Of a DNA stretch of 64,000 nt, positions 20,681-61,223 are shown piece after piece. This DNA comes from Octopus sinensis (Eukaryota), in assembly GCF_006345805.1 (NCBI RefSeq), contig NC_043010.1, positions 50,282,001 to 50,346,000 on the forward strand, in the 5' to 3' direction. The notes under the pieces were generated by a model that worked only from the letters and a program-made list of their open reading frames with translations, was not told where the DNA came from and made no database searches. The position numbers and the translations under genes are program-made. Position 1 is the stretch's first letter, and the number at the start of each line of letters is the position of its first letter.

Positions 20681-22002
20681 AGCACTCTTTTATTTGTTTC
20701 AGTCATTTGACTGTGGCCATGCTGGAGCACCACCTTTAGTCAAGCAAATCGACCCCAGAACTTATTCTTTGTAAACCTAGTACTTATTTTATCGGTCTCT
20801 CTTGCTGAGCCGCTAAGTGACGGGGACGTAAACACACCAACATCGGTTGTCAAGCGATGTTGGGGGGACAAACACAGACACACACACATATACATATGCA
20901 TGTATACGACGGGCTTCTTTCAGTTTCCATCTACCAAATCCACTCACAAGGCTTTGGTTGGCCTGAGGCTATAGTAGAAGACACTTGCCCAAGGTGCCAT
21001 GCAGTGGGACTGAACCCAGAACCATGTGGTTGGTAAGCAAGCTATTTACCATGCAGCCACTCCTGCACCTGCTTACCACACAGCCACTCCTGCACCTGCT
21101 TACCACACAGCTACTCCTGCACCTATGTTCAACTTCAACACAAATAATTTTACTTGCTTCCCAACCACATGGTTTCAGGTTCAGTTCCACTGTATGGTAC
21201 CTTGTGCAAGTGTCTTCTTCTATAGCACCAGGCTAACCAAAGCTTTGCGAGTGGATTTGGTAGGTGGAAACTGAAAGAAGCCAATTGTATGTATGTATGT
21301 GCATGCATGTGCACATGCATGTGTGTGTGGGCATGCAAGTGCATGTGTGTGTGTGTGTGCATGTGTGTGTGTTATTATATCCTTTTCTTGTCTTCATGTG
21401 GTATTTGTAAACGAATGCCGCCCACATGCAAACAGTTCCCTTTGTTTCCAATCTTCCATGGAAATATGTCTGGTCATGGTGAAATATTACCTCACTTGGA
21501 AACAGGTGAGGGTTAGTGACAGGAAGGGTATCCAGCTGTGGAAAATCTGCTTCAAAAATTCCATCCAACACATGCAAAAAGGAAAAAGGGGGACATTAAA
21601 GATGATGAAGATGATGATGATACACAGACACACACATATATTATTCTGCTTAGGCATGGCAAGACTAATAGCCTAATGTAGAACTCAATATACATATGTG
21701 TCAGAACGAATCATTAGTCGAGTACACACACACACACACACGAGGGTTGATTCATATGAAAAAGTAAGTGAACAAAATGAAATACTTAAAGAAAATATTG
21801 CATAGCAATGATGGCAGGTGAATCAAATATACTGTAGTTCATTGTAGGATATAAACAATATGACCACTTGCTTATCAGGAAATTTTTAAGCTTGATTTAA
21901 AAAAAAAATTTTAATGTTTTTCTTTAAAGTATTATAGTATTTACACTCCAGTGAAATCAAGAAATCAACTCATAAATAAACAAAACCCTCAAATCCATCA
22001 CT

Positions 22003-22037
<35 letters not shown>

Positions 22038-22276
22038 CACATATCTATGTATGTATTTATGTATGTTTGAAGATAATCAAACCAAATTTTCACCATTTCG
22101 AGCCACTCACCCAATGAGTATTTTCTGCCAAATTTGATGAAAATCCATTCAATCATTTTCCAGTAATTTTGCAAACACACAGACCAAGATCAGTGATTAA
22201 GCTTTTGCTTACATGCACAGGGTAATGAAGGTCATATAGTAATGCTTATTCCTTTGTCATCTTATTTTCTTATTTT

Positions 22277-22331
<55 letters not shown>

Positions 22332-22430
22332 GAACAAGATAGTAAGATGAACTAAGTAACCACTCTATTTCTTCTTTACTTTATTATTATAATCTTTTCT
22401 TTTTTAAATACCATAATATTAAGAACTTAC

Positions 22431-22541
22431 CTTCCCCATTGTACGGCTGCACAGGGAACATATGTCGATAATCTGCTGAAGTTTAAATGAACAATTCTGG
22501 ATGGTAAAACTCATCACTTTTGAAAATGGTTCAAGGATTCC
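22431..22541 (-). CDS. unc79: unc-79 exon (GILEPFSKVMSFTIQNCSFKLQQIIDICSLCSRTMGK)
   Basis: LEPFSK..SF.IQN motif; poly-T plus tag acceptor, aag|gtaag donor. Confidence 0.95.
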
Positions 22542-23033
22542 CTAAAAAAAAAAGAGAGAAAGAGCAAGTGAAGAATTTGTTTCTATGAGATTAAAAAGAA
22601 AGTCAGATAGAACATTAGAGAGAGAGAGAGAGAGAGAGAGGTGGAGGAGAATATCTTATGATTCACATTCAAAAATTTATGTTGGGTCACAGAACATTCT
22701 AAATTTCATAATTCTAGTTTTTATGGACATGTATGAGCCTCTAGGACAGAATGGTTAAAATACTTAAAATATCTTTAAACCCATGTGTATTTTAACAACA
22801 AGCTCGTAATACAAATTGTAACCAAAAAATGCATGGTTGTGTAGTTAAAAAGTTTGCCTTGTAACCGGGTGATTCTGTGTTCAGTCTCACAGCGCAACAT
22901 CTCAGGCAAGTAAATCCAATTTTATAGTAAAATATTATATAATATTAATTCGAGACAAAACCACTATTTTGCAAAACAAACAAGGAAAGACTTAATAAAT
23001 ACATAAAAATTTTTAATATAAAGAAATAAACCG

Positions 23034-23076
23034 CCACTACAATCGTTTCATGTCTTCAATGACATTCGTCAGGTGG
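23034..23076 (-). ncRNA. Minimal type-I hammerhead ribozyme, sense to unc-79 pre-mRNA
   Basis: CCAC-CTGACGA-ATGTC-attgaa-GACAT-GAAAC-gatt-GTA-GTGG; stems I and II perfect, core intact. Confidence 0.85.
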
Positions 23077-23553
23077 ATTTTCGATCTAAATATTATATAT
23101 ATATATATATATTCTTTTACTTGTTTTGGTCATTTAACTGCAGTCATGCTGGAGCACAACCTTAAAAGGAGATTTAGTCGAACAAATTGACCCCAGGGGT
23201 TATTCTTTGTAAATCTAGTACTTATTCTGTCGGTGTCTTTTGCTGAACCGCTAAGTTATGGGGATGTAAACACACCAGCATCAGTTGTCAAGTGATGGTG
23301 TGTATGTGTGTGTGTGTGAGTGAACTGAGACACAAACACACAAATATATATATATACAACAGGCTTCTTTCGGTTTCTCTCTGCCAAATCCACTCACAAG
23401 GCATTATTCAGCCTGAGGCTATAGTAGAAGACACCCAAGGTGCCATGCAGTGGTACTGAACCTGGAAAAATGTAGTTGGGAAGCAGGCTTCTTACCGCAT
23501 AGCCATGCCTGCATGTATGTATGTATGTATGTATGTATGTATGTATGTGTGTA

Positions 23554-23602
<49 letters not shown>

Positions 23603-23833
23603 ATATCTGGACTTAAAAGATATATGCTAGTTCACAAAAACATTCCTTCAGAATCAGATTCCAAAGCGCAAGGATGCAGAAGAAACTTGAATAATATTTG
23701 TCACTTGTGTTTTAAACCCTGTCAGTCAGCAAAGTCATCTCAGGACTCATCAACAGAGTGATTGTGCCATGTGATGGGGTGTGGTATGTGTGTTGATAGG
23801 ACAGCTATCATCTGTCAAGATGAAGAAATCATC

Positions 23834-23865
<32 letters not shown>

Positions 23866-23923
23866 ATGAGTGAGTAGACAAATGAAAGAAGGGCACTCAA
23901 CACATTTATTGGGAGTTACATGT

Positions 23924-24082
23924 ATGGATCAAAACAGTTTGAATCTAACTCCTTGGTACTCTGAGTTTCAAGTGTGATACTAATCTTTGGTCATTGGAGT
24001 CTGAATCTGACTCCAATGGCCGAAGATTAGCATCATGCTTGAAACTCAGAGTACCAAGGAGTTTGAATCTGTTTTGATCCAT
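23924..24082. repeat. Palindrome, arms about 75 bp, 7-nt loop
   Basis: atggatcaaaacag...cattggagtc-tgaatct-gactccaatg...ctgttttgatccat. Confidence 0.9.
24017..24056 (+). ncRNA. Hammerhead-like motif (CCGAAGA core variant) in the right arm of a palindrome
   Basis: TGG-CCGAAGA-tt-AGCA-tca-TGCT-t-GAAAC-tcaga-GTA-CCA; decayed mirror copy at 23954-23993 on the minus strand. Confidence 0.5.
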
Positions 24083-24113
24083 GAATATATATCATCATCA
24101 TCATCATATATAT

Positions 24114-24145
<32 letters not shown>

Positions 24146-24274
24146 ATATATATATATATAACTTTAGATTCGTTCAAATAACATTGCAATCTATCATAGA
24201 TAAAGAACTTTCTCATTTATGGTAATGATATAAACAGACTATTATCAGCCAGCACGCTGGCATCCTCTCTTGGA

Positions 24275-24318
24275 CTCCTAGATGCATTTCTGGCATGTTA
24301 TGCCTTCTTCAGTAGAAG
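24275..24318 (-). ncRNA. Minimal type-I hammerhead ribozyme, sense to unc-79 pre-mRNA
   Basis: CTTCTA-CTGAAGA-a-GGCA-taaca-TGCC-a-GAAA-tgca-TC-TAGGAG; single-pair stem III with palindromic TGCA loop. Confidence 0.8.
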
Positions 24319-24607
24319 ATACCAAAGAAAGATAACTCTGAGTTGATTAGGAAGCCATAGCTTTATAATAAATCGGTCAATGCTAGTGACTGATTTGCAC
24401 TTGTAGACTGGCTGATCTGAACAAATACATTTGCAGTGACAGGAAATAAACAAACATATTTGAACTAACCTAAAGCTACACACACACAAACACACATACA
24501 CATACATACACTCACACACAAACACACACTTACAAACACACACACTCATGCACATGTAACAGTAATATAAAGTAAAAAGCAAGTGAAAAAACAGATAAAA
24601 AACTTAC

Positions 24608-24847
24608 CCGGACATTTGTAATTCCAGGGATTTTTAAAATGGAAATCATAATGCGTAAAATAGAAGTAGTATCACATGGATTTGGCAAAACTAGAGGAAG
24701 ATGACGGAAAAAAATCTCAAATTGAGTGAGAATGTTAGGCCATAGTGGGGAGGAAGTTTCCAATGGGATGCAGTTTAGGTAAGTGGCCAAATTACTCAGA
24801 AGTAGCATGATGTTCTCAGATGGAAGTGTTTTTTTGTTGTTTAAGCC
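24608..24847 (-). CDS. unc79: unc-79 exon (GLNNKKTLPSENIMLLLSNLATYLNCIPLE...ILKIPGITNVR)
   Basis: GLNNKK.LP motif; 240 nt, phase 0-0; cgg|gtaag donor. Confidence 0.94.
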
Positions 24848-25879
24848 CTGGAATTATATATAATATATGTATATATTGCATAAGTAATAACCATCATAAG
24901 TGCAACAATTCATATAATAAAAATAACAATAGCAGCAATAATAATAATAATAATAAAAGATGTACAGGTGTGAATAGTTGTAGGGCTAGGTGGTATTTAT
25001 TACAAATGATGGTAAGTGTTGGTGGTGTGGCTCATGTACAATGGTATGAGTTTTGTAATCCACAATTTTCCTAACCCAGTGTTAACTGGATTATGTAATT
25101 GTAACAAGAAACTTAAATGCCCATTAGAAAATAAATGACTAATGAAAAACGTTGCATAAAAATGTAACATTAAAACTAATTTACATACTTTCACATATGT
25201 GGTGGGTTCCACATCTTCCACTTTTAGATCAAGATTACATAATTATTTTCATACATTTAGAAGACGAGATAAAGTGGAAATAACATTGCTCTCCATGAAG
25301 GTGTGAGTGTTAAAGGACAAAACTGTCCATTTTCACTTAACATGGAACTTTGCTAGACATACTAAGCCTTTTGTTAGTGATAAAAATGGTTGCAATCTCT
25401 GCTGTTTGGAATTGCTGAAAATTTTTAAATGCACAAGTGATGTGCATTTTAAATCAGATGAATTTAGGATGTCAGCAAAGTCAGCCTCAGTGGCATTTGA
25501 TCATATGAACATATAAAATGTAAAGTCAGAAAAAAATGCAGCTAAACATTTCGTCTGGCACAGAAATAATCCTGCTGCCACCTTACTACTACTACTACTA
25601 ATTTACATATTGGTTTCAAATTTTGGCAGAAGGCCAGTGATATTGGGGGAATGCGTAAGTCAATTACATTGATTCCAGTGCTCAACTGATATTTATTTTA
25701 TCAACCCCAAAATGATGAAAGGCAAAGTCGACTGTGGTGGAATTTGAACTCAGAACGTAGAAAGGGACGAAATGCTGCTAAGCATCTTGCCCGGTGTTGT
25801 AACGAATCTGTCAGTTCACCACCTTTACTACTGTACATATTGATAACAAACAATATATAAAATACACATAAAATTATAC

Positions 25880-25965
25880 CTCCAGAAGAAGCTGCATCGG
25901 TGTATGGCATGTGAGTTCATTAAAGTCAATAAGAGCAGATGCCATCGTCTTCCAAAAGTTTGTAT
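25880..25965 (-). CDS. unc79: unc-79 exon (DTNFWKTMASALIDFNELTCHTPMQLLLE)
   Basis: ttcag acceptor, gag|gtata donor, phase 1 to 0; DFNEL motif. Confidence 0.92.
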
Positions 25966-27410
25966 CTGAATAAATAATATAAAATGTTAAATAGCAGGAT
26001 GATGATATCACAATGGGTCTGACATTTTGATAAATACTTTGTAAATCATGTATTCTTTCAATTTTCTTTCAGATTTTTCACCACAAGATATATTCATTTC
26101 CTATTTATACTATATAGGGTGCTTTGGAATTGTAAATTTAAAGCAAAAAAAAAATAAATAAATAAAGGTATTATTACATGTAAAAACTCATTCACAATTT
26201 TGGCACACTTCATGTGGTAAGAAGCTTGGTTCTGGATGTGTGGCACTTTGGACAAGTGTCTTCTACTGTTGGAGGGACAAACACAGATACACAAACACAT
26301 ACATATATATACATATACATATATACGACAGGCTTCTTTCAGTTTCCGTCTCCTAAATCCACTTGCAAGGCTTTGGTCAGCCCGAAGCTATAGCAGAAGA
26401 CACTTGCCCAAGGTGCCACGCAGTGGGAGGTACCAGATGATAGTTTATATTTAAATATATGGGTAGAATTATTACAGGAGTATAGATTACAAAGGTCAAT
26501 AAAGGATCAAATGAGGAAAGTTCATAATGATTGTGGTATATGCTAGTATTCTCCCTGCATTTTTAGTTGCTACTCAAAAAGGAGTTTTAGGCAACAAGTC
26601 AACTTCAACGCTAACTGTATGTGCCTATTACTTTATATCATCAAGCATAACATTAAATAAACATATAGAGCTCTGATCTGGAAGAATTGTTGGTACGCTG
26701 AACAAAATGCATAGTAGTATTTCATCTATCTTTTATGTTCTGAGTTCAAATTCCATTGAGGTTGACTTTGTCTTTCATCCTTTTGGGGTCAATAAAATAA
26801 GAACCAGTTGAATTTAGGGTCAAAATAATAAACTAACTCTTTTCCTAAAATTGCTGGCCTTGTACCAAAATTTGAAACCAATATTACATAAGCATAAGAC
26901 ATTTCTTCATGCTCCATAGAGTTCATCCTACCTTAGAATTGATTTTCTTCTTAAGAATTATTCTTACCCTAAAGAGTTAATCCAATATTTAATATGGTCG
27001 TAGATATACAAGCATCAGGATGATCAACAAATGGAATAATTTGACTGGTAACTCTAAAGCGTTTGTGCTTATCTAGAGCTAAATAACAACATAGCATGAT
27101 GGATTGACAGATTAAAATAAGCCTTCCTTGTACAGGCACAAGACTTGAAATTTTTTAGAGGGGGGGGGGGCTAGTCAATTACATCAACCCAAGTTTTCAA
27201 CTGGTACTTATTTCATTGAGCTTGAAATGTTGAAAGGCAAAGCTGACTTCAGCAGAAATTGAACTCAGAACATAGAGACTGATGAGATACCACTAAGCTC
27301 TGTGTCCAGCATGCTAATGGTTCTGTCAACTTGCTGCCTTAATGATAAGTTAATAAAATAACAGCAGATTGATTTTATTACACACACCACACATCCTATA
27401 CAATACTTAC

Positions 27411-34957: not shown

Positions 34958-35030
34958 ATTTTTATAGTTCAGTTGGTAGAGCATTAGACTTTTAATCTGA
35001 AGGTTGTGGGTTTGAGTACCTCTGTGGGTG
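34958..35030 (+). pseudogene. tRNA-Lys(TTT)-derived pseudogene or SINE head
   Basis: atagttcagttggtagagcattagactTTTaatctgaaggttgtgggtttgagt resembles eukaryotic tRNA-Lys-TTT; acceptor stem and T-arm are mutated. Confidence 0.7.
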
Positions 35031-60170: not shown

Positions 60171-60747
60171 TCTCTCTCACTTTCTCCCCATTCCTCTTGT
60201 ACTATCTTATATCTCTCCCCACCCCTACACACTCAATAATACTATAAAAAGAGACAAAATTCCTGCAAAAGTTCAATTTGAAAACTCTACTAGAGTGGAT
60301 GAAAGTGCTAATATATATGATTCATAAAAACATGCAACATACTAATAAATATCTGTAAATATAAAACTATCCAGATTTCTGAGTACCTCATTTCTTCTAA
60401 TATATAATACTTGTACATCATCTCCAAACCTTCTAATATGTTTATATATATATATTATATATATCACACACACAATACATATATATTATATATATATATA
60501 TATAAAATTATTAAGGGTAGAAATTGATATTTATCAATATTAGACCAGTGGTCTAGCATATTAAAAAGAATCCGAAGATTAAAATATTTATATATACCAA
60601 TTAAGGACTGAACACGAAAAGTGGACAGTCAACATGCTAATATAGACGTCAAATCGCATTCACCACAAAAGATTATGTTCTCAGATCAAACTCAACACAA
60701 AACCATAGCAATAAACAAGTGAAAAATATACGAAATAAAATAATTAC

Positions 60748-60812
60748 CCATGTACTAAATTAGTTTCAGCTGTTATTTTCCGCAAGGAAAACTGCAGCCA
60801 TCATCAGCATGG
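60748..60812 (-). ncRNA. Type-I hammerhead ribozyme (left arm, mirror copy, sense to unc-79)
   Basis: Exact reverse complement of 60959-61023. Confidence 0.8.
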
Positions 60813-60958
60813 TCCGTTATAAATGTAATTTGCTGGACTAGATGCAAACACGATACCGAAATATCGCGTGCTGGAGTTCAGCCTATTACTGAACTCCATG
60901 CACTCGATATTTCGGTATCGTGTTTGCATCTAGTCCAGCAAATTACATTTATAACGGA

Positions 60959-61023
60959 CCATGCTGATGATGGCTGCAGTTTTCCTTGCGGAAAATAACA
61001 GCTGAAACTAATTTAGTACATGG
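60959..61023 (+). ncRNA. Type-I hammerhead ribozyme (right arm of the 590-bp palindrome)
   Basis: CCATG-CTGATGA-t-GGCTG..TTTTCC-ttgc-GGAAAA..CAGCT-GAAACTA-att-TAGTA-CATGG. Confidence 0.82.
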
Positions 61024-61176
61024 GTAATTATTTTATTTCGTATATTTTCACTTGTTTATTGCTATGGTTTTGTGTTGAGTTTGATCTGAGAACATAATCT
61101 TTTGTGGTGAATGGCGATTTGACGTCTAATATCTAGCATGTTGACTGTCCACTTTTCGTGTTCAGTCCTTAATTGG

Positions 61177-61223
<47 letters not shown>

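Follow-up and report, generated by a model that had tools for sequence, protein, structure and literature searches.

Two hammerhead ribozyme motifs that lie within a single intron of the octopus unc-79 gene belong to unrelated repeats and are very probably scraps that were inserted independently and by which next to no cutting of the host RNA is predicted. All coordinates given here are positions in the window, i.e., the 64-kb stretch of DNA that was analyzed, in which unc-79 is encoded on the minus strand. The two motifs, termed A (24275-24318) and B (23034-23076), are both on the minus strand and hence in the sense orientation. In the scenario that we favor, a young Penelope-like element (the source of B) and an old retrozyme-like tandem repeat (the source of A) would have inserted independently into the intron. 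Within the parent elements, tandem copies of each motif would have paired as homodimers and excised RNA of unit length, and a lone copy in the unc-79 intron would have no partner in cis.

The exon on the 5' side of the intron (24608-24847, minus strand) consists of 80 codons in an open frame, and its product is, from end to end, 100% identical to part of P0002, a UniRef protein from Octopus bimaculoides that in turn matches UNC79 structures with an E value of 6.6e-172; a Pfam search of the exon product and of P0002 returned no significant family. UNC-79 works with the neuronal leak channel. The exons of P0002 map in succession across the window, from 43602 down to 11460, which fixes the intron at 22542-24607 (minus strand), and the exon on its 3' side (22431-22541, minus strand) was located by tblastn with residues 592 to 628 of P0002 at 100% identity. 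The intron is of the GT-AG type, has 2,066 nt and 35% GC, and is made up mostly of repeat scraps. It is spliced, since a contig from a sequencing run guessed to be RNA links 24607 directly to the next exon. The protein match, the exon map, and the spliced contig thus confirm the placement in unc-79, between these two exons, that an earlier sequence-only reading of the window had proposed. In the guessed-RNA run, an intronic contig with a depth of 2.3 covers 24316-24466 and stops 35 nt before the cut site of motif A, and no loose end at 24280 was seen among the matches listed over 24120-24640; contigs of this kind cannot show RNA ends. A search of the literature on unc-79 intron ribozymes, octopus retrozymes, and cephalopod hammerheads yielded nothing on the present locus, as judged by title and start of the abstract.

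Several other repeats surround the motifs. High-copy short repeat pieces at 23091-23517 (minus strand), for which each 50-nt bin had 57 to 77 matches in the 580 kb of genome that were sampled, presumably represent a SINE, and their (TA)n tail is the site into which the repeat carrying motif B inserted. An inverted-repeat element of 159 bp at 23924-24082, which has no assigned strand and is also present elsewhere, is separate from the ribozymes; its 64-nt arms are 88% complementary, and it may be a DNA transposon of small size. A decayed endonuclease-end fragment of a Penelope-like element lies in the adjacent upstream intron, at 25067-25441 on the plus strand, antisense to unc-79 (E value of about 1e-13). 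A tRNA-like match with a poorly paired acceptor stem, found at 34958-35030 on the plus strand, is probably a pseudogene or a repeat head.

The sequence-only reading had described A and B as two intact, mutually unrelated type I hammerheads and had suggested Infernal and RNAmotif searches as checks. When the 64-kb window was searched with a strict descriptor of type I hammerheads, motif B was the sole match, and 200 dinucleotide shuffles gave an average of 0.0 matches. It has a helix I of 4 bp, CUGACGA, a helix II of 5 bp, GAAA, and a GUA site; an A-U pair occupies positions 10.1/11.1, positions 1.1-2.1 and 15.1-16.1 are paired, and helix III is a self-complementary segment of 8 nt with 2 bp. 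Cleavage is predicted after 23038. Motif A was matched only once a mismatch at 10.1/11.1 was permitted (average of 0.005 matches in 200 dinucleotide shuffles). It contains CUGAAGA, GAAA, an AUC site, and a helix II of 5 bp, with cleavage predicted after 24281. All of its 11 invariant core letters are present and all 6 bp of helix I are formed, two of them G-U, whereas positions 10.1/11.1 carry an A·A in place of a pair. Its palindromic helix III of 6 nt comprises 2 bp and a 2-nt loop, which makes it a dimer-only helix. The near-zero match numbers in the shuffled sequences indicate that A and B are real motifs and not chance folds, and the descriptor results together with membership in separate repeat families substantiate the claim of two unrelated sense-strand motifs. 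The claim of intactness held for B, which is fully canonical with perfect helices I and II, but not entirely for A, owing to its A·A. The Infernal-type check gave a different result, as the Rfam hammerhead models produced no match at gathering thresholds across the window, nor over 21000-26000 with E values as high as 10; it may be that these models do not cover minimal variants.

Motif B is part of a fragment at 22911-23090 (minus strand), an ORF-less end (pseudo-LTR) fragment, ~190 bp long, of a repeat (family B) located at a (TA)n run. Genome-wide, the 43 letters of the motif recur without any change 267 times, with 130 copies in forward and 137 in reverse orientation, whereas the control gave 0, and the family comprises 1,157 candidates, with 90 to 99% identity among the matches listed. 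The window copy shows 1 to 4 differences in 146 to 147 nt to its 19 best copies, 17 of which carry an identical motif. Many copies are arranged as inverted pairs. At loci L041 and L162 to L167, repeats of this family flank RT and GIY-YIG ORFs, and near-full-length, ORF-bearing copies occur in the genome; at L164, a 762-codon open frame contains YRDD and a C-terminal AVYIG, the domains having been read from motifs. The motifs of the parent ORF are KWK (RWK-like), DKT, YRDD, a CxCX5C linker, and a GIY-YIG-type C-terminal part followed by CxxC and CxH. Family B thus has the makeup of an EN+ Penelope-like element, namely, hammerhead-bearing terminal repeats that enclose one ORF in which an RT is followed by a C-terminal GIY-YIG. 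A Pfam search of this ORF and 7 relatives returned no significant family, and the comparison of an alignment of the ORF and its relatives with the PDB gave no significant match, so that the Penelope-like call is based on motifs and layout. The parent of family B is, on its sequence, a young Penelope-like element with the hallmarks of the Hydra clade, to which it was assigned by its motifs and (TA)n target.

The Hydra clade, as described in the consulted part of PMC8557442, contains C-terminal EN+ Penelope-like elements, including Hydra-1_Obim of Octopus bimaculoides, and its supplement lists a hammerhead-bearing Hydra family from the same species. Family B has in common with the clade (i) the ORF motifs, (ii) (TA)n insertion, (iii) a hammerhead in the terminal repeat, and (iv) tandem and inverted copies. 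However, the hammerhead given there for Hydra-1_oBim is not the same as that of family B, which is therefore considered a separate family. The likeness of the Hydra-1_Obim protein to that of family B was judged by eye, and the window piece itself is an ORF-less end fragment. Metazoan pseudo-LTR hammerheads of Penelope-like elements, as presented in excerpts of PMC4209133, resemble the present motifs in their short helix I, small palindromic helix III, and dimer-dependent design, as well as in their occurrence as mostly solitary copies and as inverted pairs 100 to 700 bp apart. Motif B differs from them in two respects, as the base that is usually bulged after position 9 is missing and the pair at 10.1/11.1 is A-U, where theirs is G-C; motif A differs by an extra A flanking helix II on both sides. 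Other subfamilies of B, found at L162 and at L163 (minus strand; reversed coordinates of ~1011 and ~6447), have U·U at 10.1/11.1. Together with the A·A of the repeat family to which motif A belongs, this observation suggests that mismatches at this position are propagated by mobile elements here. Several of these subfamilies have a perfect helix III palindrome, of which the window subfamily has a G-U version.

In samples X2 and X3, contigs follow 22653-22912 with a single difference, after which they continue with 98 and 106 letters, respectively, that were not placed on B. As the edge of family B is at 22911, these contigs leave the window sequence exactly at that edge, which makes it likely that B is absent there. 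X2 and X3 likely carry an empty-site allele, a reading that draws on contig letters that were neither placed nor viewed. A search of the assembly returned no alternative allele of the motif B site. The read depth of family B was 16 to 43 in X12, from organism E, compared with 10^4 to 10^6 in X2, X3, and X7; depth is not copy number, and these values are only a hint that the family is lineage specific. Motif B would look perfect because its insertion is recent and likely polymorphic. Of the two reasons that had been offered for the intact cores, recent insertion is accordingly borne out for B, whereas retention is not, as A falls within the spread of its own family (see below).

In a rival scenario, some cleavage would take place at motif B alone, which would act as an inefficient monomer or pair in trans with transcripts of its still-active parent element. 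When B is folded with flanks of 100 nt, the opening pair is predicted with a probability of 0.53 for helix I and of 0.81 for helix II; with a helix III of 2 bp and helices I and II predicted to form, weak cleavage as a monomer is possible. In addition, B has a fully canonical core, the minimum-energy cofold of B with B is a double hammerhead, and the genome contains the 267 identical copies and near-full-length, ORF-bearing relatives. Such cleavage would slightly lower or alter the unc-79 pre-mRNA of the insertion allele and would be accidental and allele specific, not evolved. However, in trans, two RNAs would have to meet before splicing. In the consulted part of PMC4209133, a single minimal hammerhead of a Penelope-like element showed no detectable cleavage, and the dimeric forms cleaved only weakly in vitro. 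Spliced message was also present in the guessed-RNA run, from an animal that may or may not carry B. Low-rate cleavage of B is thus improbable. Were it to be shown, alleles with and without the insertion, which is likely polymorphic, could be compared as a natural experiment on whether host pre-mRNA is ever cut by transposon hammerheads.

Motif A lies in a scrap of ~260 bp at 24190-24448 (minus strand), which amounts to less than one monomer of a circularly permuted tandem repeat of ~335 bp (family A). Scoring of 40 of the 112 candidates gave 44 matches, the longer of which are 71 to 84% identical. Off-diagonal matches, in which sequence downstream of the motif aligns upstream of it in other copies, peak at 330 to 340 bp, and locus L036 contains two hammerheads of this family in tandem; these data define a circularly permuted unit of ~335 bp with one hammerhead each. 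A GC content of 40.8% was determined for one unit (L035). Decay is considerable, since about 20% of the letters deviate from the commonest letter of their column. A search for ORFs of Penelope-like elements near family A copies with 8 Hydra-like proteins gave, apart from the locus of the window itself, one weak and distant match (L028). The layout corresponds to that of non-LTR retrozymes, i.e., a tandem unit of 170 to 400 bp with one type I hammerhead each and a GC content below 45%. Family A therefore appears to be an old, non-LTR-retrozyme-like tandem repeat. It resembles mussel repeats of ~350 to 390 bp in unit length and GC content, as far as the excerpts of PMC7229834 and bioRxiv 10.64898/2026.07.22.740005 go, but, compared with the non-LTR retrozymes in the former, it is decayed and its copy in the window falls short of a full unit. 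The Penelope pseudo-LTR origin proposed for both motifs was hence retained for B and replaced for A by a tandem, retrozyme-like family, beside which the 8 Hydra-like queries found no convincing ORF of a Penelope-like element. The broader idea that both are minimal, dimer-needing hammerheads derived from mobile elements proved correct, given their self-complementary helix III segments and their repeat families.

To what extent motif A stands out was assessed in an alignment of the window copy with 26 other copies from 23 loci. The A·A at 10.1/11.1 is the commonest state (17 of the 26 other copies), all 11 core letters are kept in 9 of 26, and the core plus helices I to III are kept in 2 of 26 by the same intactness test. 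The good state of motif A would thus be explained by its frequency in the family, where roughly one copy in 13 is similarly preserved. Among the 27 aligned copies, A has the fewest changes in the motif, and its helix II has 5 bp, where family A usually has three. These features, and the 0 to 1 differences over 24172-24466 in X2, X3, and X7, would fit an alternative in which selection has preserved A for a role in the host, namely, as a ribozyme of the intron that shapes unc-79 RNA processing, similar to those of RECK and C10orf118. According to the consulted part of PMC3088659, the latter are conserved across mammals (RECK also in birds) and cleave in vitro; they are like the present motifs in being sense type I hammerheads in host introns and probably repeat derived, but they are conserved and cleaving, whereas A and B are members of repeat families. 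A number of observations argue against selection on A. (i) The window copy deviates from the column majority at 4 of 44 positions in the motif and at 34 of 187 positions in the flanks, so that the motif is not significantly better kept than its flanks (Fisher test, p = 0.18); the other copies average 19% differences in the motif and 22% in the flanks. (ii) Two other copies pass the same intactness test. (iii) The A·A belongs to a class rejected by the filter described in the consulted part of PMC3088659. (iv) Helix III is dimer only, and A is predicted to be misfolded in its context, where, with 100-nt flanks, the predicted probability of the opening pair is 0.0 for helix I and 0.12 for helix II. 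(v) Other stretches, including the flanks, are just as similar in X2, X3, and X7, so that no constraint on A is shown. Being the sole exact match to two tight patterns might also seem to favor selection, but both patterns were written from window A, and this uniqueness was set aside as circular; a looser family A pattern gave 9 matches, of which only the window copy keeps GGC/GCC. In runs X11, X13, and X14 from the more distant organism E, no piece at least 95% alike was found on 24120-24640, a gap in cover that proves nothing; the pieces of organism E listed over family A look like paralogues, and X12 likewise listed no long piece there. Taken together, selection on motif A is very unlikely, and an old scrap within the spread of its family remains the preferred account of it.

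The predicted cut sites are 1,243 nt apart, in agreement with the sequence-only reading, which had proposed that cleavage at both sites could release an intronic RNA of this length and yield a retrozyme-like circle. Hammerhead cleavage leaves 5'-OH and 2',3'-cyclic phosphate ends, and both motifs are in the sense orientation, so that the ends of the released RNA would be those that a tRNA ligase could join; in the consulted part of PMC7229834, RtcB circularized retrozyme monomers in vitro. This route would require two independent, dimer-dependent cuts, and cofolds and pair probabilities computed with ViennaRNA, which are predictions and not assays, disfavor dimerization of A with B. The A:B cofold contains no double hammerhead, and in the A:A cofold helix III forms but the core is buried in another hairpin. 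The helix III duplex of A:B has an energy of -0.5 kcal/mol, compared with -4.7 for A:A and -5.8 for B:B, and the cross helices I of A:B both open with two mismatches beside the core. As both helix I and helix III are incompatible, A and B are predicted to be unable to partner. Circle closure would pair the 5' helix I strand of B with the 3' strand of A, and the first two positions of this junction are mismatched; unlike a retrozyme junction, it would therefore not rebuild a ribozyme, and closure would need RtcB. The interval does not recur as a unit but is pieced together from repeats that are unrelated to one another, and its ends are two different ribozymes in place of two direct-repeat copies of one hammerhead, so that it is not a retrozyme. 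In view of the predicted dimer incompatibility, the lack of a helix I at the junction, and the likely absence of B in two samples, the circle found no support, and we regard it as highly improbable. Just as little credence is given to a variant in which a fresh Penelope-like insertion would have brought a second hammerhead to within 1.2 kb of an old, retained one, A and B are each cut by pairing in trans with RNA of their own family, and the chimeric 1,243-nt RNA is closed by RtcB in carriers. If this variant were true, it would offer a snapshot of how a new retrozyme-like circle is born, or of how a subunit of a neuronal leak channel acquires a switch that senses transposons.

Independent insertion of two scraps, as preferred here, also agrees with the abundance of such motifs. 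A background set of 58 stretches at round coordinates (579,800 sampled bases), searched with the relaxed descriptor, contained 6 hammerhead matches, two of them in one locus, compared with 0.0 in 20 shuffled sets. The resulting density of ~1 per 100 kb corresponds to ~28,000 motifs genome-wide (95% range, 10,000 to 61,000), an estimate from 6 matches only. Under independence, ~190 same-strand pairs within 1.3 kb are expected (25 to 890), or 131 (14 to 711) if the tandem pair is counted once. By the same density, two sense matches in one named 2-kb intron are expected in about 6 of 100,000 cases. The A/B pair is therefore ordinary for a genome scan, though rare for one chosen intron, and it is the genome-wide, after-the-fact count alone that makes it ordinary. 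With intact-looking intronic hammerheads at ~1 per 100 kb, pairs mean little here. The suggested tuning of unc-79 splicing or levels likewise failed to gain support, considering the predicted incompatibility of the dimer, the likely absence of B elsewhere, and the expectation of such pairs by chance. With this locus, the octopus repeat catalogue gains a Hydra-like family of Penelope elements and a retrozyme-like family that is decayed. One of the sampled stretches contains a same-strand tandem hammerhead pair of a further family (L099:16 and L099:489; 473 nt apart).

A third, decayed copy had been reported between A and B. The best match to the relaxed descriptor in this interval is at 23753-23710 (UUGAUGA, a stem, and GAAA absent), which is probably the copy meant, as that report gave no coordinates for it. 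The match belongs to a separate repeat, family C (23605-23830, minus strand; 440 candidates with 83 to 88% identity). Among the 24 closest relatives, chosen by likeness to the window copy, none has CUGANGA and none has GAAA after the stem. With a noncanonical core in 24 of 24, the notion of a decayed third copy was not upheld, and 23753-23710 appears to be hammerhead-like in outline alone. At one locus (L080:487-1049), a copy of family C is preceded, ~450 bp upstream and in the same orientation, by a fragment of a Penelope-like endonuclease, with a microsatellite in between; since this is one locus only, any link between family C and Penelope-like elements is tentative.

The relaxed descriptor matched 4 motifs in the 64-kb window. 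Inverted partial copies of a very young, noncoding tandem repeat of ~505 bp, with one type I hammerhead per unit, are present at 60490-61187, where the hammerheads start at 60807 (minus strand) and 60964 (plus strand); their helix III is longer than that of A or B. The family has 807 candidates, 33.5% GC, and a longest open frame of 60 amino acids, and a comparison with 3 Hydra-like proteins gave no match. A literature search found no paper on an octopus non-LTR retrozyme, with the proviso that supplements of bioRxiv 10.64898/2026.07.22.740005, a source consulted in part, might list further species. At ~505 bp, the unit is somewhat longer than the 170 to 400 nt published for non-LTR retrozymes. 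Its arrays (L174 to L177) contain up to 6 hammerhead-bearing units, most of them 95 to 99% identical. This family looks like a possibly active non-LTR retrozyme, and it is a better lead than the A/B pair.
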